A DNA stretch of 33,171 nucleotides from Minisyncoccota bacterium (GTDB taxonomy: Bacteria; Patescibacteriota; Minisyncoccia; Phycocordibacterales; UBA5272): contig JAYUCW010000039.1 of the NCBI GenBank assembly GCA_043740125.1, positions 1 through 33,171 on the forward strand, in the 5' to 3' direction. The position numbers were made by a program, and so were the translations under genes. Under the pieces are notes generated by a model that made no database searches, was not told the DNA's origin, and saw only the letters and a list, made by a program, of their open reading frames with translations. This document shows positions 10,762 through 25,906 of this stretch, in pieces (the first letter of the stretch is position 1; each line of letters begins with the position of its first letter).

Positions 10762-11670
10762 CTACACTAAACGGCGGACTTCACCAAATGTTTCTTCGAG
10801 GGCACCGGATAATTCAAGAGAGGAGAACGCAGCAATGAAATCTTCGAATGGTAAGTGCGTTAAAGCAAAAAGTGAATCTTTATTTGTTGGTTCACGAAGA
10901 TTTTTGATAATACTTTTTTCGTTGTCAGTATATTTTTCAAGTGAGGATATATTGGCTTCTTCTTCCTTGGTTTTTGGTTCTGAGATATGTAAAAGTGCAA
11001 AAAGATCAGTGGGGGAGGTTATAGAGTAGGCACCTTCACGGATGAGCATATTGGTACCAAATGCAGTCGGAGAAAAAATATCTCCTGGAACTGCCCCAAC
11101 ATCACGCCCAAGTTCAATCGCATGCCTAGCAGTGATGAGTGTGCCTGATTTTTCTTCTGCTTCAATAAATAATACTGCGTCAGATAGTGCCGCCATAACA
11201 CGGTTTCTTTGGGGGAATGTCCACAATGCTGCGACGGTGTCACTTGGAAGTTCAGAGATGAGCGCCCCATTGTTTTCTACAATGTCTTGTGCGAGGTTTC
11301 TGTGTGCGCTTGGATAGAGAACTTTCTCATTTAGGCCACTTCCAGGAATGGCAATAGTAATGAGATTATTTTTGAGTGCACTTTTATGTGCGAGACTATC
11401 TATCCCAAAAGCAAGACCAGATATAATGACGACCTCTTGACCTTCTAAGGATGCAAGTAACATTTCAAGAGCTTGTTTTCCGTAGGCAGTATTTTTACGT
11501 GATCCAACGATGGTGAGAATACGAGGAGTTGCTCTCCCGTAGAGGTCTATTTTTACTTCAGGAAGTTTACCTTTAATATGTATCTCTTTTGGAATCTGAT
11601 GAAGTTCAAGAAGACGACCAAGAAGAGGGTGGTCGGCAAAATCTTTTTTAAGGATGGTGGTTGTTTCCAT
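10762..11670 (-). CDS. dprA: DNA processing protein DprA/Smf
   Basis: GSRKNTAYGKQA, SGLAFGIDSLAHKSAL and FPQRNRVMAALSDAVLFIEAEEKSGTLITARHAIELGRDVGAVPG. Start trimmed to the ATG at 11670 because a strong terminator (11692-11727) lies inside the longer 11748 ORF. Confidence 0.85.
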   Translation of the reverse strand: METTTILKKDFADHPLLGRLLELHQIPKEIHIKGKLPEVKIDLYGRATPRILTIVGSRKNTAYGKQALEMLLASLEGQEVVIISGLAFGIDSLAHKSALKNNLITIAIPGSGLNEKVLYPSAHRNLAQDIVENNGALISELPSDTVAALWTFPQRNRVMAALSDAVLFIEAEEKSGTLITARHAIELGRDVGAVPGDIFSPTAFGTNMLIREGAYSITSPTDLFALLHISEPKTKEEEANISSLEKYTDNEKSIIKNLREPTNKDSLFALTHLPFEDFIAAFSSLELSGALEETFGEVRRLV

Positions 11671-11691
11671 AACTATAAAAAGTATATCAAA

Positions 11692-11727
11692 TAAAAAAGT
11701 GCGTACGTTAGTATTACGTACGCACTT
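11692..11727 (-). terminator. rho-independent terminator after the 259-aa membrane protein gene
   Basis: 11-bp stem AAGTGCGTACG/CGTACGCACTT. The minus strand continues with TTTTTTATTT. Confidence 0.6.
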
Positions 11728-11738
11728 AAGAATCTTCT

Positions 11739-12518
11739 TTAGAAACATAGAACTGCATGTTCATAAAACTTTGCTCTTACTTCAAATGGTTTGTATCCAC
11801 CTGCAAATGAAAAGAGATCATCCCAGTCTCTTTCAAACTCGCCCCAAGTAGCTTCCTTTCTATACGAGACTATAATGTCTGTCTTCTCGTTAGAATTCTT
11901 AAAAAGATACCTTGGATGAATGGCAATTTCTTTTACATATCTCCAAAATGGGAGACTTGGAAGCTTTTGCTCAATGGTGTATTCAACAGCATCGATAAAT
12001 CCTTCTGCTTCCACAGGAAGATCTTTTGACGAAAATAGAGAGATTTCATTTCGAGGTAGAAGTGGGCATGTACCTTGAAGCACTTTTTTGGCAACATCTT
12101 TTGTATAACCAGCATACGTTAAGTATTTTTTTGATGAGCCACTATCAAGTTCTAGTAATCTGTTATTTCCTTCTGTTACAAAGTGTGATGGGTCAGGAAA
12201 AAGAATTCTTGTACCCGTTGTGTTTCTATTAAGTGTATGAGACTTTGAAAGTGTAAGGTCACGAAAAAACTGAAATTGCCACAGTCCAAAGATAGTGCTA
12301 CACAAAAATACAAAGATGACGCTTACTTTGATCATAGCAACCTCTTTAGTTGTATCTCTAAAGTCAAACAACCAAGAAAAAAGTGGTTTAAGTATCCATC
12401 CGAGTAAAGCAAGTAGTGCTCCAAGCAGCATCAGAAACGCCGCCGCAAAAACCCCATGGTGTTCTTGTGGAGGCGCGCTCGGAGTACTTTTTTCTTCTTC
12501 ATTAAAGAACCAGCCCAT
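11739..12518 (-). CDS. hypothetical membrane-anchored protein (two N-terminal TM helices plus about 170-aa outer domain)
   Basis: Long ORF with TM segments FAAAFLMLLGALLALLGWIL and VSVIFVFLCSTIFGLW. No family recognised. Confidence 0.5.
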   Translation of the reverse strand: MGWFFNEEEKSTPSAPPQEHHGVFAAAFLMLLGALLALLGWILKPLFSWLFDFRDTTKEVAMIKVSVIFVFLCSTIFGLWQFQFFRDLTLSKSHTLNRNTTGTRILFPDPSHFVTEGNNRLLELDSGSSKKYLTYAGYTKDVAKKVLQGTCPLLPRNEISLFSSKDLPVEAEGFIDAVEYTIEQKLPSLPFWRYVKEIAIHPRYLFKNSNEKTDIIVSYRKEATWGEFERDWDDLFSFAGGYKPFEVRAKFYEHAVLCF

Positions 12519-12675
12519 AATGTTCTCCTTAAAGTACTGTTTAGATGGATACTATCAGGTTTTTGTTGATAGTACAATGATATGAAATAACTTAAAGTTA
12601 AGAAAAATGTTACGTTGCTATTATTTTCATTTTGTGTAGAATGAAATTAATTGTCCTTATATTTTATTTAAGAAA

Positions 12676-13617
12676 GTGGGGTGTGTTATGGTCTTACGTG
12701 ATAGGCAGTTAGGTGGAATACCACTTACCTGGGGAATAGCAGTTGTGGCAACACTGCTTACGGCTTGTACTATACCAATCATTGCAGAATTAGTTTGGTT
12801 CAAGTTGGTTCCTTTCATACCTGAGATGATACGACCTTGGCTAGTCTATATGGGAATGATTCTCTATATTGGTCAATGTGCAGGAAATGTGAAGGCAGGG
12901 ACCGAGCAGGCGCAGCAGTGTTTTGGTATGTATACAGGCATATCATTTTCTGCAGGTTTTTATCTGCTCCCAAGGCTTCCTTTTCCTATAGTTTCTCTTT
13001 TACTTCGTGTGGTCTTTGGTCCAAATGTGTACAAATACCTCGGATGGATTCTAGAAGGTGAAGTAAGGGTAGAAAGTATCACTACATCATTTACCGCAGA
13101 AGGTATGACGAGTGATGATATTATTGTAAGTCTTAAAGGTACACTTGTGTTTGAAATTGAAAATGCTGCGATATATCTTTCGCAGACAAGGGATGGGGCT
13201 GATAGGTTAGCAATTTTGGAAGCACTTCCAAGTGAGTCCTCAGCACGTATCAAGGAAAAAGTAATTGCTGGTCACACTGCAAAAGAGCTTCATCAGGGCG
13301 CGTATAGCGGTGGAAAAGATCTAACAAAGTGGATCACAGAGGCTTGTAGTTTTGTGGAAGACTTTGGGTTGTCGCTATCACGTGCGCCGATAGTGAGAGC
13401 AGAAATCAAAAGTGAACGTATCAGAAAAGCGTTTGATGTGGATAATGCAAAGGTACTCTTGAGGCGAAATACAAACGAAGTCGCAGAAGCGTTTAGTCAA
13501 TTCAGAAAGGGATTGCCTCCTGAAACGAGCGATGAAGTTGCCTTTTTGCTTTTCAACGCTGCGAGACTGGATGAAAATCTTCCAACAGTAACAATGGCAA
13601 ATCTTAAAGTGAAGTAG
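12676..13617 (+). CDS. membrane protein with possible SPFH/band-7-like domain
   Basis: 313 aa starting at GTG 12676 (alternative ATG 12688). N-terminal TM helices. SDDIIVSLKGTLVFEIENAAIYL loosely resembles the SPFH beta-strand pattern. The function call is weak. Confidence 0.45.
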   Translation: MGCVMVLRDRQLGGIPLTWGIAVVATLLTACTIPIIAELVWFKLVPFIPEMIRPWLVYMGMILYIGQCAGNVKAGTEQAQQCFGMYTGISFSAGFYLLPRLPFPIVSLLLRVVFGPNVYKYLGWILEGEVRVESITTSFTAEGMTSDDIIVSLKGTLVFEIENAAIYLSQTRDGADRLAILEALPSESSARIKEKVIAGHTAKELHQGAYSGGKDLTKWITEACSFVEDFGLSLSRAPIVRAEIKSERIRKAFDVDNAKVLLRRNTNEVAEAFSQFRKGLPPETSDEVAFLLFNAARLDENLPTVTMANLKVK

Positions 13618-13635
13618 TGAATATTCATAAAGCAT

Positions 13636-13666
13636 AAAACGTGGTCCTTACGGACCACGTTTTTTC
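13636..13666 (+). terminator. rho-independent terminator
   Basis: AAAACGTGGTCC-TTAC-GGACCACGTTTT followed by a T-run. Confidence 0.65.
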
Positions 13667-13680
13667 TATTGTCTAAATCT

Positions 13681-13773
13681 CAGTAGGGATCGCCCCTCCT
13701 TCCAGTCGGAACGCACTATTTTTATAGTCGCTTTGCTCATTAAAAATAGGCGCCTACGGTTCGATCCCTACTG
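13681..13773. repeat. 93-nt element with perfect 12-bp terminal inverted repeats that copy the 3' end of the adjacent tRNA-Lys
   Basis: CAGTAGGGATCG (13681-13692) and CGATCCCTACTG (13762-13773). 13758-13773 (GGTTCGATCCCTACTG) equals 16 nt of the tRNA-Lys T-loop/acceptor in the opposite orientation. 13681-13692 is a direct repeat of 13832-13843 inside the tRNA gene. Confidence 0.6.
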
Positions 13774-13778
13774 ATACT

Positions 13779-13824
13779 ATGAATAGAAAACACAGACCTT
13801 TAAAAGTCTGTGTTTTCTATTCAT
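13779..13824. repeat. perfect 19-bp-stem palindrome abutting the tRNA-Lys 3' end
   Basis: ATGAATAGAAAACACAGAC - CTTTAAAA - GTCTGTGTTTTCTATTCAT. Confidence 0.7.
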
Positions 13825-13825
13825 G

Positions 13826-13898
13826 TGTCCCCAGTAGGGATCGAACCTACGACCTGCGGATTAAGAGTCCGATGCTCTACCAGCTGAGCTATAGGGAC
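13826..13898 (-). tRNA. tRNA-Lys (anticodon CTT)
   Basis: Reverse complement is GTCCCTATAGCTCAGCTGGTAGAGCATCGGACTCTTAATCCGCAGGTCGTAGGTTCGATCCCTACTGGGGACA. Anticodon loop CTCTTAA, T-arm GTAGG-TTCGATC-CCTAC. Confidence 0.9.
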
Positions 13899-14008
13899 AT
13901 TGACACACGCCTCATACTATACCACAATGTGAAAAATAATTCTAGAGTCTTCTTTAATTTTGTGATAGAATGGAAAAACTTTTGATGCTAGTAATTAAGC
14001 ATTGAACT

Positions 14009-14156
14009 AAATGATGCAGTGGTCGAGAAGCTTGGCTTCGAAGATGTCTAAGGTCATCAGACCGAAGACCAAAAAGAGGCCGGTAGGCTAATTAGTAAGC
14101 ACCACTCTGAATTCTGGTAAATTAAATAAGTTATTATAGACGAAATGATGCAGTGG
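14009..14156 (+). repeat. 14-bp perfect direct repeat of the tRNA-Cys 5' end bracketing a 120-nt insert
   Basis: AAATGATGCAGTGG occurs at 14009-14022 and again at 14143-14156. The second copy is the true 5' end of tRNA-Cys plus 4 upstream nt. Confidence 0.7.
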
Positions 14157-14223
14157 CGAAGAGGCCTAACGCTGCGGTTTGCAAAACCGCCATTCGCGGG
14201 TTCGACTCCCGCCTGCATCTCCA
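14147..14223 (+). tRNA. tRNA-Cys (anticodon GCA), CCA encoded
   Basis: Acceptor GATGCAG/CTGCATC, discriminator T. Anticodon stem GCGGT/ACCGC with loop TTGCAAA. T-arm GCGGG-TTCGACT-CCCGC, then CCA. Confidence 0.85.
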
Positions 14224-14395
14224 AAAATAAGCGAAGCATTTTTTGAGATGCAGGAAGACATGGCCCGCGCCATGTCTGTCGGGAGTCGAAGCGCGCAGCG
14301 ATATTTTGCTAGTAAGCAAAATCGCGAGCGGCGGTCGGCGAGAAACTTTTGCGACGGCAAAATTTTACTTGCCGAAGACATTCCCGCCTGCATCT
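14207..14395 (+). repeat. 14-bp perfect direct repeat of the tRNA-Cys 3' end bracketing a 161-nt G+C-rich hairpin-dense insert
   Basis: TCCCGCCTGCATCT occurs at 14207-14220 (in the tRNA) and at 14382-14395. The insert contains GACATGGC-CCGC-GCCATGTC and other stems, plus GAGATGCAGG complementary to the tRNA 3' end. Confidence 0.7.
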
Positions 14396-14446
14396 ATATA
14401 AAAATCCCACTTAATGTTAGAATAATCCTCACATAGAAATATGCAT

Positions 14447-14528
14447 GCCCGGGTGATGAAATGGTAGACATAAGACACTTAAAATGTCTGGCGCTATGCG
14501 CGTGCGGGTTCGAGTCCCGCCCTGGGCA
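14447..14528 (+). tRNA. tRNA-Leu (anticodon TAA)
   Basis: Acceptor GCCCGGG/CCTGGGC. Anticodon stem AGACA/TGTCT with loop CTTAAAA. Long variable arm. T-arm GCGGG-TTCGAGT-CCCGC. Confidence 0.9.
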
Positions 14529-14606
14529 CAAATAGGTTTTAAGCTAAATAGTCCATACTAAGCATGGGTTTTTTAGTTCTAACTTTTAATTATTTTAAAT
14601 TAAGTT

Positions 14607-14634
14607 TTGAATTAAATTATTTCTTTGTTAGACT
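14607..14634 (+). promoter_or_regulatory. candidate promoter of AT-rich block 1 (TTGAAT - 16 nt - TGtTAGACT extended -10)
   Basis: TTGAAT at 14607-14612 and TAGACT at 14629-14634 preceded by TGT. The ATG at 14641 is only 6 nt downstream. Same architecture as 22235-22262. Confidence 0.4.
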
Positions 14635-14640
14635 TTAAAT

Positions 14641-15876
14641 ATGAATACTTTTATTAATACTTTAGGAAGTCCTTTAGATATAGAAGTTGTTGAACGTAAA
14701 GGAATAGGTCACCCTGATTCCTTAGCAGATATAATTGCTGAGGATTTTTCAAACAAATATTCACTTTACTGTCTAGAACAATTTGGTGTTGTTCTGAACT
14801 ACTGGTTTGATAAGGTAACCATTTCAGGAGGGGTTTGCGATTTGGGTTTTGGTAGGTGTGATGTTTTAAAACCGATTACAATATATTTATTTGGTAGAGT
14901 TACTACAAAATTTGCTAATCATGAAATACCGTTTGAGGACATGTTTAAAGAAAGTTGTCTCAGTGTTTTTCGACAAATTTTTGGAGATACATATCCGAAA
15001 GAGTCTATTAATTTTTTCTTTGATGTGAACAGTGCGCTAGGTGCTGATCATGAAAAAACTTATTATTCTCCAAATTCTGTAGATTCACTAAAAACCTTTG
15101 AAAATTTTACTGCAAATGACACAGTTGTTTGTCATGGATACGCTCCCTATACAAAAACTGAAACTATTTGTATTGCAATTGAAAACTTTCTTAATTCAGA
15201 TTCATTTAAAAATAAATATAGAGCCACAGGCTGGGATATAAAAGTTTTAATAATTCGTGAAAGTAATTCATACAGAATAACAGTTTGTGTTCCTTTTATT
15301 GCTACTAAAACAAAATCTCATGAATTTTATCTAAATTCAAAAAATGAGATCAAAAAAGAGATAAGTGAATTTCTTCAAACTGGTGACTTTTTCTCCAGTA
15401 ATGATAGTTATGAAATCTACTTAAATACAAAGGATCGAGATAATCTCGCATATCTTGTTGCATATGGTTCGGCTGCTGATAAAGGAGATTATGGTGCTGT
15501 TGGAAGAGGAAACAGATACTCTGGTGTAATTTCAGTAAATCGTGGTACGAATGTTGAGGCTGTAAATGGAAAAAATTCTCGAAACCATAGTGGTAAGTTA
15601 TATACTGTTTTGTCTCATTCATTAGCTTCTTTTGTTTACAATAAAACAGGTGAACCATGTCAGGTTATTATTACTACGGATAACGGTAGACCACTTAGTG
15701 ATCCGACTATGGTTGTGGTTCATTTTGATAACAAAGGGTTTAACTTGAACCAAGGCGACGATTTAATAATTAAAAAACACATTAAGATGGTTTTTGATGA
15801 AATTGAAAAACTTTCTTCTCTTATAATATCTCGCAATCCAGTTACTGATTTTAAAAATATTTTTATCTATGCTTAA
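14641..15876 (+). CDS. archaeal-type S-adenosylmethionine synthetase (methionine adenosyltransferase)
   Basis: VERKGIGHPDSLAD, NDTVVCHGYAPYTKTE, DIKVL, YGSAADKGDYGAVGRGNRYSGVIS and GKNSRNHSGKLY align along the whole length with the archaeal MAT family as I recall it (Methanocaldococcus type). Confidence 0.8.
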   Translation: MNTFINTLGSPLDIEVVERKGIGHPDSLADIIAEDFSNKYSLYCLEQFGVVLNYWFDKVTISGGVCDLGFGRCDVLKPITIYLFGRVTTKFANHEIPFEDMFKESCLSVFRQIFGDTYPKESINFFFDVNSALGADHEKTYYSPNSVDSLKTFENFTANDTVVCHGYAPYTKTETICIAIENFLNSDSFKNKYRATGWDIKVLIIRESNSYRITVCVPFIATKTKSHEFYLNSKNEIKKEISEFLQTGDFFSSNDSYEIYLNTKDRDNLAYLVAYGSAADKGDYGAVGRGNRYSGVISVNRGTNVEAVNGKNSRNHSGKLYTVLSHSLASFVYNKTGEPCQVIITTDNGRPLSDPTMVVVHFDNKGFNLNQGDDLIIKKHIKMVFDEIEKLSSLIISRNPVTDFKNIFIYA

Positions 15877-16429
15877 AATAATATTAATTGGTGGAGGAGA
15901 TTTAACCGAAGAATCACTTTTAAAAATAAAAGAGGAAGCTACTTCAAGTTTTTTAAAATCAAAGAATATTAAGACAATGATTATCCCGTTTGCAAGATAC
16001 GAAGAGGATTGGGAAGCTGTATACACTAAAAATATAACCAAGTATGCCTGTGATGATTACAAGTATACTTTTATGTACCCGAGTAAAGATCATAATGCTT
16101 TTCTGGAACAGTTAAATGATTCAGAATTAGTAATTATCCCCGGAGGCAGTGAATTAAGCCTTATAAAAAATTTACCAGAGCTTTCAAGTGCTAATTTTGA
16201 TAATAAAGTAATAATTGCAACATCTGCTGGAACTAATTTTTTAGCTAGTTCATATTATTCTAACGATAGAGATGAGTTTGCTGTGGGTTCTAATATTTTA
16301 AAGATAAATACAATTTGTCATTTTAAAGATGATGTAATTGATAAGGTAAAAGTATTAACAGAATTAAATGGTCTACCAACTTTTACACTAAGAGAAGGTG
16401 ATTTTATTGTGTTATATGAAAGTAAATAA
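15869..16429 (+). CDS. peptidase S51 (PepE/cyanophycinase-fold) family hydrolase
   Basis: IIPFARYEEDWEAVYTK, LVIIPGGSELSLIKN, IIATSAGTNFLA (nucleophile Ser) and TICHF (His) parallel the E. coli PepE motifs. 8-nt overlap with the upstream gene. Confidence 0.6.
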   Translation: MLKIILIGGGDLTEESLLKIKEEATSSFLKSKNIKTMIIPFARYEEDWEAVYTKNITKYACDDYKYTFMYPSKDHNAFLEQLNDSELVIIPGGSELSLIKNLPELSSANFDNKVIIATSAGTNFLASSYYSNDRDEFAVGSNILKINTICHFKDDVIDKVKVLTELNGLPTFTLREGDFIVLYESK

Positions 16430-16919
16430 TTCCATTTTAAATTTTTTGGAGGTGTATTCTAAAAATTGTCATATTGATGCAATAGATAGTGTGGTTGTGC
16501 TTCTTAAACCTGATTATCCTGAAGATAAAAAAATGTCTTTTTTATCCTATTGTAATGAAAAGTCGTTAAAGATTATATTTAATGATTCTTCTATTTTAAA
16601 TAAAGAAAAAATTTTCGGTATTTATTATGATCTTTTTAGACAAAAAGACGATGATCTGAAGTACGGAATACTATGGAAATTAAAATTAATTGACTATTTA
16701 ACAAGTGGAAAGTCTAATTATTACCTAATTCAAGGTGTTAATGCGCAAGAATTATTAAATAATTATAAAAAAGTGATTAGATTGGAATACGATAAAATCA
16801 CAACACCAAAGGAAGTAATGAGTGAAGATGTTTTTTTTGAAAAAGTTATCAAGAATTTAATCCATGTTACAAATACAGAAGAATTTGTTCCAACTTGTTG
16901 GTTTTTATTTATAAAATAA
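16416..16919 (+). CDS. divergent nucleoside-diphosphate-kinase-like protein
   Basis: VVVLLKPDYP (NDK: FSIIKPNAV), LKIIF...KIFGIY, LIDYLTSGKSNYYLIQG (NDK: LVEFMTSGPIVVSVLEG) and NLIHVTNTEE (NDK: NGTHGSDSVE, His kept). Start set at ATG 16416, overlapping the previous stop by 14 nt. Confidence 0.45.
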   Translation: MKVNNSILNFLEVYSKNCHIDAIDSVVVLLKPDYPEDKKMSFLSYCNEKSLKIIFNDSSILNKEKIFGIYYDLFRQKDDDLKYGILWKLKLIDYLTSGKSNYYLIQGVNAQELLNNYKKVIRLEYDKITTPKEVMSEDVFFEKVIKNLIHVTNTEEFVPTCWFLFIK

Positions 16920-16922
16920 ACT

Positions 16923-18278
16923 ATGGAAAAAAGAGAAAAAATCTCCAAGAGTTTTGAAGATGGTAACGAGGAAGAGTGGGGAAGTATTTTTCGGTTAGGT
17001 GTTTCTCCTGTAAAAGCAAATTTTCGTATTGGTCCACTACGATCCCATCTATATAATTATGTTTATGCTAGTAATGAAAAATTAAAAAATAAAGATTCAA
17101 GGGTTTATTTTCGTGTTGATGATTCAAACCAAGAAAAAGGAGACAGAGAAATGTCTGAAAAACTTTTTTATTTTTTCTCTGAAACTCTCGGGATGGAATT
17201 TGATCAACAAGAAGACAACAGTCAGATGATTTTTCAATCCGAAAGGGTTGATTTATACCGTGAGTATTTAGAAAAATTATTTGATGTTGGTGTGGTTTTC
17301 TTAGATAAAGAATCTGGATTAACTCTTTTTGATATTGAAAAATTTATTGATATATATGGAGAAACAATACAATTTCATGATGTTGTAAGAGGTCAAGTAG
17401 TTTTAAAATTAAAGAAACTTTTAGATAAACAAAAGTTTTTTCCTTTAGTGAGGTCAAATGGTTCAGTGCTCTATCACTTAGCTTCTGTTGCAGACGATCA
17501 TCTTCTCGGTGTTACGCATGTTGTCCGTGGTGCGGATAAGCTATCGGTTGCACAATATCAAGAAATGGTAAGAATTGCACTTGATTTGGAGCCTAAAAAA
17601 TTTATGCACACACCTCTTATGTTGGATGATGAAGGTGGTTTATTAAAAGGCGATGTTTTATATGACTCTTTTATTAAAAAAGGTATTTTGCCTCAAGCGA
17701 TGTTGTCTTATATGATTTCATCAGGTTATGGTGACCCAGATATGATCTATGATTCAATAGAGGCTATTGTGGAAGATTTTGATTACAAAAAAGTAAGACA
17801 AAATAATGGTAAATTTGATTTTAAAAAACTAGTTAGTGTAAATAGAAAAATTTTGTCTAGTGTTAGTGATGAAGATTATTCTATTTCATTAAGACTATAT
17901 TCCGCAAAAATAAATAGAGAAGATATGCATTATGACCTTAATAATGAGATAGAGTTGGCACCTCTTTTTTCAAAACTAAAAATACCATTTGAAAAAACTG
18001 AAGTGTTTTATGATACTTTAGACAGGCCAGATTATTCTGGTATTAAAACCCTTGATATAGAAACTAGGAATGAACTTGATTTGCTTATTGAGGAATTTAA
18101 GCTTGATAGTTTTGATTATAAAGATTATTTTTATTCTTCAAATAAGAATAAGATAAGAGCCTTAAAATTTTTCCTTATTGGTGATTTACAGGTTTCTGGT
18201 GGTTTAGTTGAGATAACAGAATATTTGATTTCTAAAAATTTGATTTCTAAAAGATTAGAAATGTTAAGTGGTTTGTAG
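16923..18278 (+). CDS. glutamyl-tRNA-synthetase-like class I paralogue lacking HIGH and KMSKS signatures
   Basis: [26 protein letters not shown] versus [36 protein letters not shown] versus [36 protein letters not shown] versus [32 protein letters not shown] sits where KLSKR should be. Confidence 0.75.
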   Translation: [451 protein letters not shown]

Positions 18279-18333
18279 TCTGTGAATTTATATTGTCTTA
18301 TTTTGTTTTTTTGTTAATGTAGTATCTAAGAGT

Positions 18334-18519
18334 GTGGGGTAAAATTATTTATTCACCCAATTCTTCAGGTTTGGAATGTATGGAATCACCTCAGACTTCA
18401 TCAGTTCAGTTCTAACCCTTCACAGGGCTGCGATTTTAACAAGTCGGGAGCCCTAAGACTGCATTTTCAATAACCTGATTATAGGTTAAGAAAACGGGAG
18501 CATTGTCTGTTAGGGTTAC
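18334..18519 (-). pseudogene. decayed 3' gene remnant, copy 1 of 3
   Basis: Minus strand encodes VTLTDNAPVFLTYNQVIENAVLGLPTC*, then after a roughly 30-nt insertion and a stop, RVRTELMKSEVIPYIPNLKNWVNK*. Homologous to 19981-20151 and 26958-27074. Confidence 0.6.
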
Positions 18520-18593
18520 ATTGAAAAAAACTCTCAGAAATAAAAGATTTTTTCTTACCCTGTTTTGCCGTTTGAACTGATATACTATTTGAT

Positions 18594-19331
18594 ATGAAAA
18601 AAGTCTTATTCTTCGATATGTACCAGACACTTATCGATACACAAATAGGTGACAAAAAGGAAATTGTAGAAAATGCCTATAAACAAGTTTTTTCTCATTT
18701 CTTGATTGAGAAAGGTATTGAGGTAGATCAAGCTAATAATTTCCAGTCAAATTACAAAAAACTTCAAGATGAATTTTACACAAGCCACGACAAAGAAAAA
18801 GAACATCATGACTTTAAAGTAATACTTAAAAAAACTTTTTCAGACTATTATCAAATTGATATTGATGAGAAAGTTTTGGTAGAACTTATCTGGCAGTATA
18901 GAAAATTAACAAGAGGCGATACTAAACTATATCCTGACGTTAAAGATACTTTAGAGTTGCTCTCCCATGAGTATTCTCTGTATCTTGCTAGTTATACGCA
19001 AGCTTGCTATTCATTATTAGAAATAGAAGAGCTTGGAATTAAGGATTACTTTAAAGGGTTTATTTTTTCTTCTGATATTGGTTATAAAAAAATGAGTGAC
19101 GGATTTTATTTAAAGTGTATAGAAGTTTCAGGGGTGTCTCCAGAAGATTGTGTTATGGTTGGTGATAATAAACTTGAAGATATGTATATGGCAAATAAAA
19201 ATAAAATGTTGACTGTATGGATTAAAAATCCTATTACAGTTAATAATGTGTCTAACGAGCCAATTGCACCCACGAAAGAGTTGGACCTAAAAGATTTTAG
19301 TAAATTGGGTGAGTTACTCTCAACAATCTAA
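18594..19331 (+). CDS. HAD-superfamily hydrolase (subfamily IA-like, D-x-Y type motif I)
   Basis: Motif I FFDMYQTLID, motif II region LASYT, motif IV VMVGDNKLEDM. Confidence 0.7.
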   Translation: MKKVLFFDMYQTLIDTQIGDKKEIVENAYKQVFSHFLIEKGIEVDQANNFQSNYKKLQDEFYTSHDKEKEHHDFKVILKKTFSDYYQIDIDEKVLVELIWQYRKLTRGDTKLYPDVKDTLELLSHEYSLYLASYTQACYSLLEIEELGIKDYFKGFIFSSDIGYKKMSDGFYLKCIEVSGVSPEDCVMVGDNKLEDMYMANKNKMLTVWIKNPITVNNVSNEPIAPTKELDLKDFSKLGELLSTI

Positions 19332-19335
19332 CTAT

Positions 19336-19983
19336 ATGGAAAATTTCTTAAAAAGCAATAATCAAGAAGAGATAAAGCCTCCTAAGACTGAAAGAGATTC
19401 TCAGTTAAACCCTTCAATTGGAATTGAAGAGGCAGTAAAACTACAATCTGTTCTAGATAGGTATACAGATAAGAGAGTTCTTGTCGTCGGTCCTCCGGCT
19501 TCAGGTAAAAGCACCTTGCTTCAACATGTACCAAGTGGAGTTGATATGGATAATGCTCTTTTTGACACAATGCCAAAAAGAGAAAAAGATTTTGCACTTC
19601 AACGAGAGAAACCTTACATGCTTACAGACCCAACCTCTAAAGGTTATCAAAAAACAATTAAGTATGTGCAAAGAGAATTTAATCCAAATGATGAGCAGAA
19701 TGTTACTGATTTTCATTTGTCAGCAGACTTTCTGACCACGTATATAAATGCTCATACAAAAATTGAGGCAGGTAAACCATTCTTTGCAACGAACGTGATT
19801 GATTCTGATGTTATTGTTTATCTGAAACTATCTGATGAAGAATATAAAAAAAGATTAGAATTAAGAAATAAGACAAATAGACCGCAACAAGTAGAGAAAG
19901 CTTTTGCTATAAAAGGTGATATTGAAAAGCATATAGCTATTGCAAGAAATAATGGAGTGATAGTAGAAGAGCTTGAGATGTAG
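19336..19983 (+). CDS. P-loop NTPase, small nucleotide/nucleoside-kinase-like protein
   Basis: Walker A VVGPPASGKSTLL. Its size and the helical lid-like region suggest an AAA_33/adenylate-kinase-like fold. Start set at ATG 19336, just after the HAD stop. Confidence 0.55.
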   Translation: MENFLKSNNQEEIKPPKTERDSQLNPSIGIEEAVKLQSVLDRYTDKRVLVVGPPASGKSTLLQHVPSGVDMDNALFDTMPKREKDFALQREKPYMLTDPTSKGYQKTIKYVQREFNPNDEQNVTDFHLSADFLTTYINAHTKIEAGKPFFATNVIDSDVIVYLKLSDEEYKKRLELRNKTNRPQQVEKAFAIKGDIEKHIAIARNNGVIVEELEM

Positions 19984-20151
19984 TGTCACCCACTGTGGGG
20001 TAAACTAAACTTTCTCAGCCCATGCTCTCAAATTCGGCATATAAGGAATTACTTCACTCTTCATCAATTCAGTTCTAACCCTAGACAGGACTGCATTTTC
20101 AAAAACATGATTACATGTCAAGAAAAGGGAGCCTTGTCTATTAGGGTGCAC
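19981..20151 (-). pseudogene. decayed 3' gene remnant, copy 2 of 3
   Basis: Minus strand encodes CTLIDKAP, then a 1-nt deletion, then ...FLTCNHVFENAVLSRVRTELMKSEVIPYMPNLRAWAEKV*. Shares both end points with copies 1 and 3. Confidence 0.6.
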
Positions 20152-20156
20152 AAATT

Positions 20157-20183
20157 TAAAAATCTGACTAAAGTCAGTTTTTA
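20157..20183 (+). terminator. rho-independent terminator closing block 1
   Basis: AAAAATCTGAC-TAA-AGTCAGTTTTT. Confidence 0.55.
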
Positions 20184-20858: not shown

Positions 20859-21542
20859 TTAAAGAAATTCTTCCGGAGCATCTGTTGCGAAAAAATACTT
20901 TTCACCACCAATCTCAAACATGAGTGTCTTAGCATGAAGCATAATACGAGGGGAGTCATGAGTGCTTCCATATGCTTTATCACCAATGATTGGATGTCCG
21001 ATATGAGACGTATGTGCACGGAGTTGATGAGTGCGACCAGTCTTTGGGGTGAGCTCTACCAGTGTGGTATTTTCTTTTTCATTTCGTGTGATAACTTTTA
21101 CCTCTGTGACTGCAGCACGTAATTCTCCTCGAGGGTTCGTAGGATTAACCTGTTGCTTATAGTCTTTTTTATTGCGGCCTAGTGGAGCGTCTATCGTGAA
21201 CTCGGTCTCGGTAATAATTCCTTCAACTAGAGCAAGGTACGTTTTCTTTGTGACGTGATTTCTGAATTGTGATTTTAGTTCATCAAACGTTTCTTTATTT
21301 TTTGAGATCACCATCACGCCAGAAGTATCACGGTCTAATTTGTGAACAATACCTCCAAGATTTATTGTTCGTTTATCTTGTAGGGTTACAGGGTTATCAA
21401 TACCAAAAATATCTGGTACATGTGTCATCAAAAAATCAATAAGTGTTTCTTCAGTGGAATAGTCAAAAGGATGGACCACGAGTCCAGAGGGTTTATTGAT
21501 AACCAAGATATTTGTATCCTCGAATATGACAGAGATAATCAT
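20859..21542 (-). CDS. RluA-family pseudouridine synthase (no S4 domain)
   Basis: VINKPSGLVVHP, HKLDRDTSGVMV (catalytic Asp motif) and GRTHQLRAH. Start trimmed to ATG 21542 because the longer ORF (to 21821) runs through tRNA-Leu(TAG). Confidence 0.85.
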   Translation of the reverse strand: MIISVIFEDTNILVINKPSGLVVHPFDYSTEETLIDFLMTHVPDIFGIDNPVTLQDKRTINLGGIVHKLDRDTSGVMVISKNKETFDELKSQFRNHVTKKTYLALVEGIITETEFTIDAPLGRNKKDYKQQVNPTNPRGELRAAVTEVKVITRNEKENTTLVELTPKTGRTHQLRAHTSHIGHPIIGDKAYGSTHDSPRIMLHAKTLMFEIGGEKYFFATDAPEEFL

Positions 21543-21591
21543 AAGTAGCACTCTACCATATTTTAGTGTATAATCTCTAGACAAATAAGAA

Positions 21592-21676
21592 GCCCAGGTG
21601 GTGAAATTGGTAGACACATCAGTCTTAGGAACTGATGCCGCAAGGCGTGAAGGTTCAAGTCCTTTCCTGGGCACCA
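21592..21676 (+). tRNA. tRNA-Leu (anticodon TAG), CCA encoded
   Basis: Acceptor GCCCAGG/CCTGGGC. Anticodon stem TCAGT/ACTGA with loop CTTAGGA. Long variable arm. T-arm GAAGG-TTCAAGT-CCTTT(C). TATAAT lies about 18 nt upstream. Confidence 0.9.
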
Positions 21677-21748
21677 CGAAAAAATTCCTTAGAAATAAGG
21701 GATTTTTTCTTACACTGTATTTTACGTTGGAACTGATATACTTTAACC

Positions 21749-22189
21749 ATGTTTCGTAAAGGAGTCTCTGCCTTAATAATAAACAAGAATCAAGAGTTTT
21801 TGCTTGTAAACTTACAGTCATTTAAAGTTCATTTTTTCGCTGTCCCTGGAGGTGGTTTAGAAGATGATGAATCACTTGAAGAAGCTGTATACCGTGAAGT
21901 ACAAGAAGAGGTTGGGATACATAAAGAATCCCTTAAATGTATTGGAGCAAGTAAACAACCTGTACAGTTTAAGTTAAATCTTAATCGTGATGGGAAAGCA
22001 TATGAAGGTTCAGAGAGATATTTTTTTGGCTTTAGATTTATAGGAAATGATGATGAAATAAAATTACAAGAGTCCGAAGTACGTTCATATAAATGGGTGT
22101 CATTCAATGATTTAAAAGGCTATCTCCTTTTTGATAATCAGCTAGAAGAAACATCAGAGAAAATTATAGAACTATTTCCCTTTTTGTAA
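21749..22189 (+). CDS. NUDIX hydrolase
   Basis: Nudix box GGGLEDDESLEEAVYREVQEEVGI. Confidence 0.85.
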   Translation: MFRKGVSALIINKNQEFLLVNLQSFKVHFFAVPGGGLEDDESLEEAVYREVQEEVGIHKESLKCIGASKQPVQFKLNLNRDGKAYEGSERYFFGFRFIGNDDEIKLQESEVRSYKWVSFNDLKGYLLFDNQLEETSEKIIELFPFL

Positions 22190-22234
22190 ACAGAAGTAAG
22201 TAACCAGTTATTGATTAATCTGATTACAAGAGTT

Positions 22235-22262
22235 TTGAAATCTATCTTTTTCTTGTTAGAAT
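22235..22262 (+). promoter_or_regulatory. candidate promoter of the six-gene sub-operon (TTGAAA - 16 nt - TGtTAGAAT extended -10)
   Basis: TTGAAA at 22235-22240 and TAGAAT at 22257-22262 preceded by TGT. ATG at 22269. Confidence 0.4.
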
Positions 22263-22268
22263 GGCACT

Positions 22269-22955
22269 ATGAAAGAAACTCCTGAAAGTAGACAAATATC
22301 AAAAGTTGATTCTGATATCAATAGTGTTGAGAATAATTTTTCTAAAATAAAAAATTCGACTCATTGTCCATTTGCAGATAAGTCAAATATACAATATTTT
22401 GAATCATGGAATAGATATAAAACTTTTGATGAAAATTTAGTAGCATTAGCAGAAGAACTAGTAGTATTTACTCATAAATGTGAAGAAGAAAAGATGGATG
22501 GTTTTATCTTTGAAGTTTCTGGCGACAATTTACCTATGAATTTGCAGGATTTGTCATCTTTGTTAAAACATGTACTTTTAAAATTAAATGAGCTAGACCC
22601 AAAAAAAGATGACTGTATGTCTAAAGATATTTCTGCGCCTGGTTGGCAGTTCGTATTTAATGGACAAAGAATTTTTATGATTACATTCGGATCTTTTTAT
22701 AGTGAAGATAGTCCAAGATACTCTATGAATAAAGATTCAACTTTTATTTTCATGCAACCCGAATCATCTTTCCATTTACATATCATAAATCCAGCAAAAT
22801 CACCCCAGACACTAAAATTAAAAGAAAAAATCAGAAGTGCTTTCGTAGAAGGAGGGAAACCTTATAATACTGAAATTGTCGATAGTCCATCTGACGCTAT
22901 TAAATACATTAAACCGCTTCATAAAAATGACTCACATATAGAGTGGTGGAAATAA
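22269..22955 (+). CDS. YqcI/YcgG-family protein (family of heme-dependent N-oxygenases such as GntA)
   Basis: STHCPFA near the N-terminus and GWQFVFNGQRIFMITFGSFYSEDSPRYSMNKDSTFIFMQPESSF match the YcgG C-terminal pattern W-x-F-x-F-x-G ... F-Q-P as I recall it. Confidence 0.55.
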   Translation: MKETPESRQISKVDSDINSVENNFSKIKNSTHCPFADKSNIQYFESWNRYKTFDENLVALAEELVVFTHKCEEEKMDGFIFEVSGDNLPMNLQDLSSLLKHVLLKLNELDPKKDDCMSKDISAPGWQFVFNGQRIFMITFGSFYSEDSPRYSMNKDSTFIFMQPESSFHLHIINPAKSPQTLKLKEKIRSAFVEGGKPYNTEIVDSPSDAIKYIKPLHKNDSHIEWWK

Positions 22956-22960
22956 ATTAT

Positions 22961-23920
22961 ATGCAAAATAACAAGATAGGAATAATAACAACTTCTGCTC
23001 CGATTAAAAAACTTGATATAGATATGGTGAGGTCAGGGTATACCTACCTATTAAAAAATGGTTTTGAAGTTTTTGAACACCCAAGCTGTCAATTGGAAAA
23101 TGGATATATGGCAGGGAATGTTGACGATAGAGTAGAAGCAATTCATGATTTGGTTAAAGATAAGACAGTTGATATTATAATGGCTTTTTGGGGCGGAGAC
23201 AATACGAATCAGCTTCTAGATAAGTTAGACTATGACTTAATAAAAAATAATCCAAAAATATTTATTGGCTACTCGGACACAAGTAGTTTATTAAATGCAA
23301 TTCATGTAAAAACTGGCCTAGTTACATACCTTGGGCCTGCCGTTATTACTTTTTGTAAACCTAACATTTTCCCGGAGAGTATTTTCTATTTTAAAAAAGT
23401 TGTGAGCGAACGAGGTCTAAAACAAACATTGGTACAACCAACACTTTACGCTAAAGACGCATACTACAAAAGAAGCGATAATCAAAGAATTATAGAGAGT
23501 AACGATGGTTGGAAGGTATTGAGACATGGAGTTGTTTCTGATAAAAAAATAGTTGCAATATGTTTGTCGATGTTACAATCATTACTCTCTACACCGTATG
23601 AACCAGATCTTAAAGGAAAAGTTCTTTTTTGTGAAATAGATGAATCCATAAAAATAGAAGCATTCGATAGGATGGTTGTACAGCTTAAACAAACGGGTAT
23701 TTTGGATACTATTGCTGCTTTTGTATTTAGTAAGGCGACAGATGAATCAAATATTAATGAAATAGATATAGTAAAAGTTTTGGAAGAGAACATAAAGAAT
23801 GATATTCCAATTATTTATAATTTTGACTGTGGTCACACGGATCCTGTTATCACTATTCCAGTCGGTGGTTATTGTGATATTAATACGAAGGACGGTGTTT
23901 CTATTTCTGTGAGTTATTAA
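22961..23920 (+). CDS. S66-family serine peptidase (LD-carboxypeptidase / MccF-like)
   Basis: IGIITTSAPI, FWGGDNTNQLL, FIGYSDTSSLL (nucleophile Ser), CEIDE and DCGHTDPVITIPVG (His) follow the LdcA/MccF layout. Confidence 0.75.
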   Translation: MQNNKIGIITTSAPIKKLDIDMVRSGYTYLLKNGFEVFEHPSCQLENGYMAGNVDDRVEAIHDLVKDKTVDIIMAFWGGDNTNQLLDKLDYDLIKNNPKIFIGYSDTSSLLNAIHVKTGLVTYLGPAVITFCKPNIFPESIFYFKKVVSERGLKQTLVQPTLYAKDAYYKRSDNQRIIESNDGWKVLRHGVVSDKKIVAICLSMLQSLLSTPYEPDLKGKVLFCEIDESIKIEAFDRMVVQLKQTGILDTIAAFVFSKATDESNINEIDIVKVLEENIKNDIPIIYNFDCGHTDPVITIPVGGYCDINTKDGVSISVSY

Positions 23921-23933
23921 CCTTATTGTAGGT

Positions 23934-25067: not shown

Positions 25068-25094
25068 CTCATAATATGGTATTATTCTAGTAAT

Positions 25095-25901: not shown

Positions 25902-25906
25902 AAGTA

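Follow-up and report, generated by a model that had tools for sequence, protein, structure and literature searches.

A GluRS-like paralogue of CPR bacteria that has lost both class I ATP signatures and may be a Glu-tRNA-dependent transferase

Here, we describe a glutamyl-tRNA synthetase (GluRS)-like protein of 451 aa, encoded in a 33,171-nt stretch of DNA (the window), which retains the glutamate-site residues and the predicted fold of GluRS while both ATP signatures of class I synthetases are lost. The best explanation, to which we give a probability of roughly 0.45, is that the protein is a transferase dependent on Glu-tRNA, passing glutamyl groups to a SAM- or adenosine-derived acceptor, with a neighbouring Peptidase_S51-type protein as the reversing or immunity hydrolase. 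According to a 2022 review of aminoacyl-tRNA synthetase (aaRS) paralogues, GluQRS is the only GluRS paralogue with a non-translational job (PMC9437257), and a 2026 review counts AcmF and SbzA as the only two aaRS-like enzymes with aminoacyl-tRNA (aa-tRNA) as donor. We found no description of the GluRS-like family in the literature searched, reviews of aaRS paralogues included, and it appears to be undescribed there. The gene and its motifs, with equivalents in Thermus thermophilus GluRS (Tth), are as follows.

16923–18278, plus strand: GluRS-like paralogue, 451 aa, ATG start (ORF list, Pfam, NCBIfam, AF2, Foldseek)
17025–17036, plus strand: HIGH-equivalent tetrapeptide R35-I36-G37-P38, no His (Tth H15-V16-G17-T18)
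17472–17540, plus strand: core block with glutamate-site residues Y184, D192 and R202, plus D205 and the family-invariant K206 (Tth map)
17637–17651, plus strand: KMSKS-equivalent loop G239-L-L-K-G243, three residues shorter (Tth map)

Judged by profile scores, homology of the 451-aa protein to GluRS is far above chance level. The profile alignment to Pfam tRNA-synt_1c proposed with the original prediction gives E=1.2e-22 and bears out this homology, and the score against NCBIfam gltX_bact (TIGR00464) is 138.1 bits, below half of the equivalog cutoff of 289.95. Structure prediction, proposed at the same time, returned a full-length bacterial GluRS fold (AF2, pLDDT 92), which Foldseek matches to PDB 8jpv with a TM of 0.75 over ~459 columns. 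On the strength of this match the C-terminal helical anticodon-binding domains are present in the predicted fold; the Pfam search found no Anticodon_2 match in the protein, and on the residue map the anticodon-discriminating Arg (Tth R358) is not kept. The top PDB sequence match is the non-discriminating GluRS of T. maritima.

Residues were mapped onto T. thermophilus GluRS, using a sequence that agrees with PDB 1J09 at 468/468 positions, and motifs were aligned with MAFFT/HMMER for the GluRS-like family together with 35 canonical GluRS. The original prediction saw a GluRS paralogue with its substrate core kept and both class I ATP signatures gone, a view that the alignments, the Tth map and true GluRS genes co-located with relatives all sustain. 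It read the HIGH equivalent as F-R-I-G: His is indeed missing, and the register was one residue out, the tetrapeptide being R35-I36-G37-P38. Position 1 of this motif is K in 34, R in 7, N in 3 and T in 1 of the close family members and His in 0/45, versus His in 35/35 canonical GluRS; it is basic (K/R) in 41/45 close and 31/43 wider-clade members, and the wider clade also has N, G, E, T, S and W. The KMSKS position had been placed correctly at GLLKG, residues 239–243. Compared with Tth, K243 and I244 correspond to L240 and L241 and S245-K246-R247 are deleted, a three-residue loss found in 44–45/45 close family members. The leftover loop lysine, K242, is kept in 22/45 close relatives and 9/43 members of the wider clade, and an LSKR-type motif is absent from all wider-clade members. 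A displaced but intact HIGH or KMSKS, the outcome that would have spoken against the original prediction, was sought with the MAFFT/HMMER alignments and the Tth map throughout the protein and its family, and none was found; the alignment with the 35 canonical GluRS and the verified map rule out that reading. Both class I ATP signatures are lost in the protein, and the pattern generalises to the whole conserved clade, the motif losses being common to ~50 close clusters and ~60 deeper representatives.

The protein strings quoted in the original prediction were located at residues 28–46, 63–73, 184–206 and 255–264, besides the GLLKG loop, and the Tth map confirms that glutamate-site residues are kept. 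Tth R5, S9, Y187, D195 and R205 correspond to R24, S28, Y184, D192 and R202, with S9 a position that we take to belong to the glutamate site. Glutamate binding by Tth R5, Y187, D195 and R205 is established (PMC2978374). Y184, D192 and R202 occur in 45/45 family members and R24 in 42/45, the other three sequences being N-terminally truncated. The clade also conserves D205 (Tth E208), H229-x-P231 and L232/M233 (Tth L235/L236), presumably the adenosine-contact positions of the Tth GluRS–ATP structures, and it has invariant residues peculiar to itself, namely N33, H42, D66, K206, Q213, E214 and R217, of which K206 is found in 45/45 close and 37/43 wider-clade members. Purifying selection acts on the gene, with a dN/dS of 0.125 against the 80% identical orthologue in locus L001. 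Taken with the clade-specific invariant residues, this value points to an old active site that was probably remodelled and is not dead. The missing catalytic signatures would be expected of a decaying pseudogene or an annotation artefact, but the ORF is intact, and the dN/dS, the retention of the altered motifs across a deep clade and the confident predicted structure rule this out, so that its probability is negligible.

A basic HIGH position 1 (31/43 even in the wider clade) and a near-invariant K206 make ATP use with relocated catalytic residues possible. The protein might then still be an ATP-dependent glutamate ligase, with tRNA or a small molecule as acceptor, whose catalytic positive charges have moved to the K/R at HIGH position 1, to K206 and to R217. 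The retained putative adenosine-contact residues agree with this, as does a precedent from arginyl-tRNA synthetases, some of which, as Sekine et al. are said to have reported in 2001, make up for the absent lysine of KMSKS with one in the HIGH loop. Nevertheless, we consider such a ligase rather unlikely, given that HIGH position 1 varies within the clade, that the KMSKS loop is shortened in the close family with no LSKR-type motif in the wider clade, and that linkage to canonical GluRS and to SAM enzymes would be left unexplained.

All named members of the family are Patescibacteria (CPR), bacteria of ultra-small size, and cluster records of distant members carry no taxonomy. Its subgroups share a mutual identity of only 25–30%, close relatives occur in only 9/185,579 GTDB species genomes, and a profile search of the protein database gained no further named organisms with the gene. 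Present database labels are 'glutamate--tRNA ligase (family protein)' or 'glutamyl-tRNA synthetase'. No canonical GluRS lies inside the window, and one stands beside the GluRS-like gene in four loci only (L002, L012, L014 and L023), where the bona fide genes score 297–544 bits, above the TIGR00464 cutoff, and in L002 and L023 are on the same strand as the cluster genes and effectively contiguous with them. Because a true GluRS gene accompanies it in the locus of these four relatives, the GluRS-like gene is a paralogue of GluRS. The T. maritima match and the full-length fold would also suit a working second GluRS (e.g. a tRNA(Gln)-specific GluRS2) or a sole GluRS with diverged motifs; this is very improbable with both ATP motifs gone, 138 bits against a 290-bit equivalog cutoff, genuine GluRS genes alongside in four loci and a family as rare as ~50–60 clusters. 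The rarity and the co-resident true GluRS genes likewise rule out a housekeeping GluRS. A phage origin was also rejected: IMG/VR holds no relative of the protein, and INPHARED phages give matches of just 22–27% in unannotated records, consistent with distant or canonical GluRS genes.

Genomic context was absent from the original prediction, and we regard two parts of it as decisive, the SAM synthetase/S51 operon and a second, AlaRS-like paralogue in the window. The neighbouring genes are listed below.

14641–15876, plus strand: archaeal-type methionine adenosyltransferase (MAT, SAM synthetase), first gene of the operon (PF01941, 2.2e-82)
15869–16429, plus strand: short Peptidase_S51-type serine hydrolase (S51), 186 aa (PF03575, 1.5e-08)
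16398–16919, plus strand: 173-aa protein between S51 and the GluRS-like gene, no Pfam or NCBIfam match
18594–19983, plus strand: nucleotidase-like HAD phosphatase and P-loop kinase of type AAA_18, located downstream within the low-GC island of the GluRS-like gene (profile matches)
22943–23920, plus strand: Peptidase_S66 (LD-carboxypeptidase/MccF family; PF02016, PF17676)
23934–25067, plus strand: AlaRS-like protein, 377 aa, truncated, in a second low-GC island (PF01411, 1.1e-09)
25095–25901, plus strand: SAM-dependent methyltransferase (MTase), co-operonic with the GluRS-like gene in L006, L007, L014 and L024

The operon is conserved. S51 is the steadiest partner, present in ~21 of the 23 informative loci with the GluRS-like gene, and the operon includes MAT or a SAM hydrolase in ~19/23, versus 0/70 in each case for the negative control of 70 canonical GluRS loci among 80 from one metagenome scan. 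MAT, which overlaps the start of the S51 gene by 8 nt, aligns with solved archaeal MATs, catalytic motifs included, at E ~1e-51. Archaeal-type MAT genes with 35–38% identity also occur in Nocardiopsis and related actinomycetes. Among ten S51 partners the GxSAG nucleophile motif and the C-H histidine are invariant. In L014, S66 stands in for S51 (genes AsnA-like, GluRS-like, S66, MTase). Similarity of the AlaRS-like protein is confined to the catalytic domain (alaS 39 bits, cutoff 457), and its gene is functionally linked to the GluRS-like gene through their shared operon in other genomes, in the order MAT-AlaRSlike-S51-MTase-GluRSlike (L006, L024/25). Conservation of the 173-aa protein at this place is limited to L001, L005 and L019, which are the closest relatives. 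The HAD phosphatase and AAA_18 kinase are not kept in other GluRS-like loci; they are possible tailoring genes with weak linkage.

Other roles suggested by the surroundings were discarded. PADLOC has no match for the GluRS-like, MAT, S51, S66 or AlaRS-like proteins, and an anti-phage defence system was rejected on this ground. Nor is there a sign of a tRNA or riboswitch dedicated to the gene: all five tRNA genes of the window are ordinary ones for Leu, Lys and Cys, and the 315-nt spacer 3' of the GluRS-like gene has no Rfam match. A transamidosome-like glutamine amidotransferase formed by S51 and the GluRS-like protein was judged unlikely, because the family is too rare for an essential Gln-tRNA route and has no constant kinase-type activating subunit.

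The same hydrolases could be taken as signs of a protein that binds without catalysis. MccF cleaves acidic aminoacyl amides, and steady pairing with hydrolase families of this activity (PepE-type S51, MccF-type S66), next to kept ligand pockets and missing catalytic ATP motifs, would suit a decoy or immunity protein that passes a glutamyl-adenylate-like toxin to S51 or S66, or a Glu, SAM or tRNA sensor that regulates the neighbouring enzymes. We consider this unlikely, given that D66, K206, Q213, E214 and R217 around the old active site look catalytic and are under selection, and that a tRNA-shaped body of 450 aa is big for a small-molecule decoy. The SAM enzymes, in turn, could mean that SAM replaces ATP as co-substrate, such that the glutamate carboxylate attacks C5' of SAM and a 5'-glutamyl-adenosine ester results, or that SAM gives up an alkyl, aminocarboxypropyl or adenosyl group to the 3' end of tRNA(Glu). 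The alternative partners, MAT and the SAM hydrolase/fluorinase family, both carry out C5' adenosine substitution, in L013 and L016 the MAT gene overlaps the GluRS-like one, and the HIGH-loop sequence is unchanged whichever of the two is the partner. However, a sulfonium substrate is without precedent in the class I synthetase fold, SAM is ~three bonds shorter than Glu-AMP from ribose to distal carboxylate, and MAT may merely feed the methyltransferase or make an acceptor; hence, this use of SAM is distinctly unlikely.

For the Glu-tRNA-dependent transferase that we favour, the proposed mechanism starts from a repurposed GluRS that would have given up glutamate activation by ATP. HIGH and KMSKS, the two elements holding the ATP phosphates, are lost, and the glutamate pocket is kept, along with the whole tRNA-synthetase body, including its C-terminal helical domains, and residues that presumably, as in T. 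thermophilus structures, surround the adenosine moiety in the former ATP site. The protein would bind Glu-tRNA(Glu) produced by an ordinary GluRS and run the transfer step in reverse, so that the glutamyl group leaves the 3' end of the tRNA for the nucleophile of an adenosine-type acceptor seated in the former ATP/AMP site. As acceptor we propose SAM or an adenosine modified at 5', delivered by the SAM synthetase of the same transcript or, in the genomes that have it instead, by the SAM hydrolase/fluorinase-family enzyme; the resulting glutamyl-adenosine conjugate would mimic glutamyl-adenylate. S51 (S66/MccF-type in one relative) would cut the glutamyl–acceptor bond for self-protection, editing or maturation, and the AlaRS-like protein and methyltransferase of the second island would be further tailoring enzymes.

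Several observations argue for this transferase. The ATP signatures are gone clade-wide while R24, S28, Y184, D192 and R202 are kept, the putative adenosine-contact positions are conserved, and the predicted fold spans a full-length GluRS, of which GluQRS covers the catalytic half only. Selection, as measured by dN/dS, and the clade's own invariant residues add to this, as do the true GluRS genes in the four loci and the S51 and SAM-enzyme linkage that recurs across subgroups and is absent from the control loci. An AlaRS-like protein that resembles AcmF in size and architecture is co-operonic in L006 and L024 and lies in the same window here, and AcmF and SbzA are the closest working precedent, an experimental one (PMC12945691). 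Three points are what we infer: dependence on tRNA, the kind of acceptor and the part that S51 plays. The original prediction had left a choice between a pre-activated substrate, binding without catalysis and a new reaction; as far as function can be inferred, the first is now best supported, given the full-length synthetase body, the operon-linked canonical GluRS in some loci and the AcmF/SbzA precedent (PMC12945691).

Some points count against the transferase. The minimal MAT-S51-GluRSlike operon has no obvious nucleophile-installing enzymes (e.g. sulfamate biosynthesis genes), and because Tth R358 is not conserved, recognition of tRNA(Glu) is no more than putative. Production of nucleoside antibiotics is not known from CPR bacteria. 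The small number of loci with an adjoining canonical GluRS, four, also weighs on this side. S51 could have a quite different role from a reversing hydrolase, given its glutamine-amidotransferase-like fold and the GATase_3 matches of the S51 partners in L006 and L007. A bolder proposal, which we hold to be doubtful, is that MAT, S51 and the GluRS-like gene form a compact, horizontally mobile CPR module that joins the glutamyl group of Glu-tRNA to a SAM-derived acceptor, giving a glutamyl-adenosine or glutamyl-SAM conjugate, or, radically, that a class I fold here uses the SAM sulfonium and not ATP.

If true, the transferase would be a third aa-tRNA-donor enzyme and the first such transferase derived from GluRS, widening that enzyme class by a deep, diverse and CPR-confined clade linked throughout to a SAM enzyme plus a small hydrolase. 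In its product we would have the first glutamyl-adenylate mimic from nature, an aminoacyl nucleoside that targets GluRS, and the radical version would give the first class I synthetase fold with the SAM sulfonium as its energy-rich co-substrate in place of ATP. Either would imply small-molecule chemistry in organisms usually thought to be almost without secondary metabolism, chemistry that could be an aminoacyl-tRNA synthetase inhibitor directed against hosts or competitors. A module of three to five genes would be open to heterologous expression. For annotation, GluRS-like genes are to be left out of the GluRS count when CPR metabolism is reconstructed.

Among known systems, canonical bacterial GluRS (8jpv, 3afh, 1j09) shares with the GluRS-like protein a five-domain fold (TM ~0.7–0.75), the glutamate-binding Arg/Arg/Asp/Tyr network and the QSER and HxP motifs. 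In contrast to canonical GluRS, the GluRS-like protein lacks the HIGH His, has a deletion in the KMSKS loop and carries E41 to D and W209/H to K replacements, and, unlike most of them, it has no connective/zinc-binding insertion. GluQRS (YadB), which the original prediction offered as a precedent, is likewise a GluRS paralogue with a glutamate-binding catalytic core, but it proves a poor analogue, being without C-terminal domains and having intact ATP motifs. It consists of the catalytic domain only (~270–300 aa), whereas the GluRS-like protein has 451 aa with C-terminal domains, and membership of GluQRS is ruled out by a TIGR03838 score of 76.3 bits, below the cutoff of 276.7, and by partial structural cover (TMq 0.45–0.47). 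GluQRS, the tRNA glutamyl-Q34 synthetase, has been described as ~300 aa long with the C-terminal domains absent and as activating Glu without tRNA (PMC9437257).

Cyclodipeptide synthases combine a Rossmann fold like that of class I aaRS with the absence of ATP motifs and take aa-tRNA as activated substrate (PMC3105412), and in principle the GluRS-like protein resembles them in its class I fold without ATP motifs and in its proposed use of aa-tRNA. There is no sequence relationship between the two, and cyclodipeptide synthases differ in being class Ic (Tyr/Trp)-derived and ~230–300 aa long, in lacking tRNA-binding domains and in forming a Ser acyl-enzyme. SbzA, an IleRS-like protein of the SB-203207/altemicidin pathway, is a full-length class I aaRS paralogue that, in its aminoacylation site, loads a small-molecule amine with the amino acid of aa-tRNA, and it keeps HYGH, an AMSKA motif and weak charging activity (PMC12945691). 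The GluRS-like protein is class I and full-length as well, but it is without both motifs. AcmF of ascamycin biosynthesis is AlaRS-like with a degenerate ATP site in which most ATP-binding and activation residues are lost; it is proposed to take Ala-tRNA from AcmD, the AlaRS copy of the cluster, to acylate a nucleoside sulfamate in the former adenylate site, and the hydrolase AcmE undoes the reaction (PMC12945691). AcmF is a truncated class II AlaRS from Streptomyces with sulfamate biosynthesis genes, whereas the GluRS-like protein is class I and full-length, in CPR bacteria with SAM synthetase or SAM hydrolase genes. The likeness to the AcmF/SbzA type is one of functional class, with no homologous family implied, and lies in a degenerate ATP site with the amino-acid pocket kept. 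AcmF, AcmD and AcmE would have counterparts in the GluRS-like protein, the adjacent canonical GluRS (four loci) and the S51/S66 hydrolase (nearly all loci), and a truncated AlaRS-like gene, as AcmF is, lies in the window here and in the operon elsewhere.

The GluRS-like protein is, by sequence, unambiguously related to GluRS yet falls below family thresholds. It matches Pfam tRNA-synt_1c (E=1.2e-22) and scores 138 bits with NCBIfam gltX_bact (curated cutoff 290), 76 bits with the GluQRS profile (cutoff 277) and 37 bits with the archaeal GluRS profile.

16923..18278, +, GluRS-like ORF, ATG start, 451 aa

All peptide strings quoted in the original prediction were found (residues 28-46, 63-73, 184-206, 239-243 and 255-264). 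Residues were mapped by adding T. thermophilus GluRS (Tth; 468/468 identical to PDB 1J09) to an 80-sequence alignment. The Tth HIGH tetrapeptide H15-V16-G17-T18 aligns with R35-I36-G37-P38, with no His; the proposed loss of HIGH stands, but its F-R-I-G register was one residue off. In the Tth KISKR motif, K243 and I244 correspond to L240 and L241 and S245-K246-R247 is deleted, which bears out the loss of KMSKS, and the map places neither motif shifted but intact. The glutamate-binding network of GluRS (Arg5, Arg205, Asp195 and Tyr187; PMC2978374) maps to R24, R202, D192 and Y184. Because the HIGH His is absent, the S-K-R of KISKR deleted and the glutamate network intact, the claim of a kept substrate-binding core without the class I ATP motifs is confirmed. 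At what we take to be the ribose/adenine contacts in Tth GluRS-ATP complexes, E208 becomes D205 and H232-x-P234-L235-L236 becomes H229-x-P231-L232-M233. The glutamate site, these putative contact positions and the tRNA-shaped body survive, and exactly the triphosphate-holding elements are lost.

An AlphaFold2 model built from the 80-sequence alignment (pLDDT 92.2, pTM 0.87) is a confident full-length bacterial GluRS fold. The top Foldseek matches in the PDB are full-length bacterial GluRS (8jpv, TM 0.75 over ~459 columns; then 3afh, 2cfo and 6b1p), and GluQRS structures cover the model at a TMq of only 0.45-0.47. From these full-length matches, the C-terminal helical domains, which hold tRNA in GluRS, are predicted to be retained. 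Pfam Anticodon_2 has no match in the protein, and the C36-discriminating Tth Arg358 is not conserved on the residue map.

A search of 5.8 billion proteins returned ~50 clusters at E<1e-49 that are 35-80% identical to the protein, after which scores fall to canonical GluRS (E ~1e-27, 25-30% identity); named members come from Parcubacteria, Falkowbacteria and Uhrbacteria. The altered motifs are common to all 45 aligned close members, whose consensus reads S-P-[TV]-E-S-N-K-K-I-G-P-I-R-S-H-L-Y-N-Y where canonical GluRS has S-P-T-G-x-x-H-I-G-x-x-R-T-A-L-F-N-Y; the KMSKS loop carries a three-residue deletion, and E41>D and W209/H>K further separate these members from canonical GluRS. An exhaustive HMMER pass with the family profile over 1.84 billion representatives extended this to a deeper clade of ~55-60 representatives at the 50% level (185-715 bits, full-length, in a single stretch). 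It holds at least six subgroups with differing HIGH-loop replacements (SNKKIGP, YRLNRLR, GSMSICE, WNLWIWA, KDMKLGA and APFRICN), and every member in the motif table is without the HIGH His and without LSKR. D-D replaces the canonical E-D in 43/43 sequences of the clade alignment, most of which have R-G-x-D-K.

Residue conservation in the 43-sequence clade alignment
D66: 43/43
R202: 42/43
R24 position: 38 R + 4 K
K206: 37/43
H229: 39/43
P231: 40/43
Q213: 41/43
R217: 37/43
HIGH-1 position: basic in 31/43, never His
Residual 'KMSKS' Lys: 9/43

On these alignments the motif losses are a feature of the whole family and not an accident, and the active site seems to be remodelled under selection, not decaying. 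With a dN/dS of 0.125 between the window gene and its 80%-identical orthologue, and altered motifs shared across the family, a pseudogene is vanishingly improbable and effectively excluded. As most HIGH-1 residues are K/R and K206 hardly varies, the protein could conceivably still use ATP through relocated catalytic residues, which we consider unlikely.

The GluRS-like gene is a paralogue: in four relatives (loci L002/L020, L012, L014 and L023) a bona fide GluRS shares its locus. These co-resident genes score 297-544 bits with gltX_bact, above its equivalog cutoff, and have HIGH- and KLSKR-type motifs, the L023 gene being scored on the KLSKR-type motif only because its called ORF lacks the N-terminus including the HIGH region. 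In L002 and L023 the true GluRS is on the same strand as the cluster genes and essentially contiguous with them. Among 185,579 GTDB species genomes, a pattern scan detected the family in 9, eight of them Patescibacteria-type or unclassified MAGs and one a bin labelled Omnitrophota, far too rare for a housekeeping enzyme. Given this rarity and the true GluRS in four loci, a working GluRS2 or sole GluRS is highly improbable and effectively excluded.

The window is a CPR-type (Patescibacteria) chromosome segment that carries ParB, RelA/SpoT, TopA, DprA and IF-2, with two low-GC islands (~0.30 versus 0.40 elsewhere; in the GC profile ~0.28-0.34 at 15000-20000 and 22000-27000 versus ~0.40). Island 1 is an operon of overlapping or abutting genes for a methionine adenosyltransferase (MAT), a Peptidase_S51-type hydrolase (S51), a 173-aa protein (hyp173) and the GluRS-like protein, followed downstream by a HAD phosphatase and then a P-loop kinase. 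Island 2 (22269-26933) encodes a YqcI/YcgG protein, an S66 peptidase of the MccF/LdcA (LD-carboxypeptidase) family, a second aaRS paralogue, a methyltransferase and two tandem dCTP-deaminase-like proteins.

14641-15876, +, archaeal-type MAT, island 1 operon
15869-16429, +, short S51 serine hydrolase, island 1 operon
23934-25067, +, truncated AlaRS-like protein, 377 aa, alaS 39 bits (cutoff 457), island 2

Both islands start right after tRNA-Leu genes (14447-14529 and 21592-21676; TAA and TAG anticodons), which together with the low GC suggests horizontally acquired cassettes; a tRNA cluster (Lys, Cys, Leu) lies upstream of island 1. No integrase is found beside either island in the window, and an HTH_38 protein lies at 29736-30392. 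An intergenic repeat of ~130-190 nt occurs in three copies (18317-18516, 19978-20163 and 26954-27086; 64-85% identical), directly 3' of the block-final genes in the low-GC islands (GluRS-like gene, kinase and DCD2), with additional segments at 18523-18566 and 21678-21721. It has no Rfam match and may be a terminator, REP-like element, small RNA or cassette boundary; in spacer 18279-18593, folding of the minus strand is more stable than that of shuffled sequences (z=-3.5), which does not hold for the plus strand. A 320-aa pseudouridine synthase ORF (20859-21821, -) overlaps tRNA-Leu(TAG) on the opposite strand, and translation of this ORF probably begins further downstream.

The chief pointer to function is the gene neighbourhood. 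Neighbourhoods of relatives carrying GluRS-like genes (L-numbered loci; GluRSL below) were annotated with custom HMMs.

Gene order at GluRS-like loci
I: MAT-S51-[hyp173]-GluRSL (window, L001, L005, L019, L010, L012, L022, L011, L032-34)
II: SAM hydrolase (PF01887, fluorinase family)-P-loop protein-MurG-like glycosyltransferase-S51-GluRSL (L002, L027-31, L009)
III: MAT-AlaRS-like-S51-methyltransferase-GluRSL (L006, L024/25; partial in L007)
IV: MAT-GluRSL-sulfatase-like hydrolase-S51 or permuted order (L013, L016; distant subgroups, ~29% identity)
V: AsnA-like-GluRSL-S66-methyltransferase-unknown-MFS-GluRS-MFS-ATP-grasp (L014)

Among 23 informative non-redundant loci, S51 is present in ~21, with S66 substituting in one, and a SAM enzyme in ~19; MAT, S51 and SAM hydrolase are absent from all 70 canonical GluRS control loci of the same metagenome scan. 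Architecture III, with AlaRS-like and methyltransferase genes inside the GluRS-like operon in L006 and L024, combines genes from both islands of the window and links the islands as one functional set. The motif-3-like 'GxGxER', read by eye, is FGVET in the window AlaRS-like protein (Arg>Thr) and FGVER/FGMER in L006/L024. The L014 genes (6930-17467) form an apparent small-molecule biosynthesis/export cluster around a distant GluRS-like gene (subgroup C), with an AsnA-like class II synthetase paralogue, a 403-aa protein without assignment and two MFS transporters either side of a 559-aa bona fide GluRS. In L019 a NUDIX hydrolase gene (437-954), homologous to the one at 21749-22189 (+) in the window (76% DNA identity), lies directly upstream of the MAT-S51-hyp173-GluRSL operon, and within this sub-lineage NUDIX may thus be a module member.

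S51 enzymes cleave N-terminal acidic aminoacyl amides (PepE, cyanophycinase), and both the GxSAG nucleophile and the catalytic His are conserved in the partners of the GluRS-like gene. Pairing with a hydrolase is consistent with a non-catalytic decoy or sensor, a rather unlikely role into which the newly conserved polar active-site residues do not fit. The window MAT (PF01941, archaeal type) aligns with solved archaeal MATs, catalytic motifs included, and is below every NCBIfam MAT cutoff (317 versus 435-577). Its close relatives comprise only ~70 clusters at >=40% identity, many on contigs exactly equal in size to those with GluRS-like matches, which indirectly suggests a dedicated module component rather than a general CPR SAM synthetase; the closest named ones are from a DPANN archaeon (Aenigmatarchaeota, 45%). 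Extra archaeal-type MAT genes (35-38% identity) also occur in Nocardiopsis and other large-genome actinomycetes. Direct use of SAM as an energy-rich co-substrate is attractive because the alternative partners, MAT and SAM hydrolase, have only SAM chemistry in common, and the HIGH-loop sequence is the same in both operon types; being without precedent, it strikes us as improbable.

In databases, family members carry the name 'glutamate--tRNA ligase family protein' or 'glutamyl-tRNA synthetase', or are left without one, and our literature searches turned up no description of the family. YadB/GluQRS is the sole GluRS entry in a 2022 review of aaRS paralogues (PMC9437257), and AcmF and SbzA are the only aaRS-like members in a 2026 review of aa-tRNA-dependent enzymes (PMC12945691). 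We would place the family among aaRS paralogues with non-translational chemistry. AcmF and SbzA provide an experimentally validated template: AlaRS-like AcmF, without most ATP-binding/activation residues, moves Ala from Ala-tRNA(Ala) to the sulfamate nitrogen of a nucleoside, the acceptor's proposed place being the former adenylate site; AcmD, the cluster's own canonical, resistant AlaRS copy, makes its Ala-tRNA(Ala); the hydrolase AcmE reverses the reaction; and IleRS-like SbzA works in the same manner (PMC12945691).

Because the module can be matched to the ascamycin system component by component, we propose, with a probability of roughly 45%, that the GluRS-like protein is a Glu-tRNA-dependent glutamyl transferase. 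It would bind Glu-tRNA(Glu) and glutamylate a SAM- or adenosine-derived acceptor to give a glutamyl-adenylate mimic, from which S51 would take the glutamyl group off again for immunity, editing or maturation; the product may be an antibiotic, signal or storage form. In CPR bacteria the module forms a well-defined, compact operon that can be tested directly. Compared with the ascamycin system, the GluRS-like protein would correspond to AcmF, which the 377-aa AlaRS-like protein resembles in size and architecture; the adjacent canonical GluRS, in the four loci that have one, to AcmD; the S51/S66 hydrolase to AcmE or an MccF-type immunity peptidase; and MAT, SAM hydrolase or the sulfatase-like enzyme to the scaffold enzymes for a 5'-modified adenosine.
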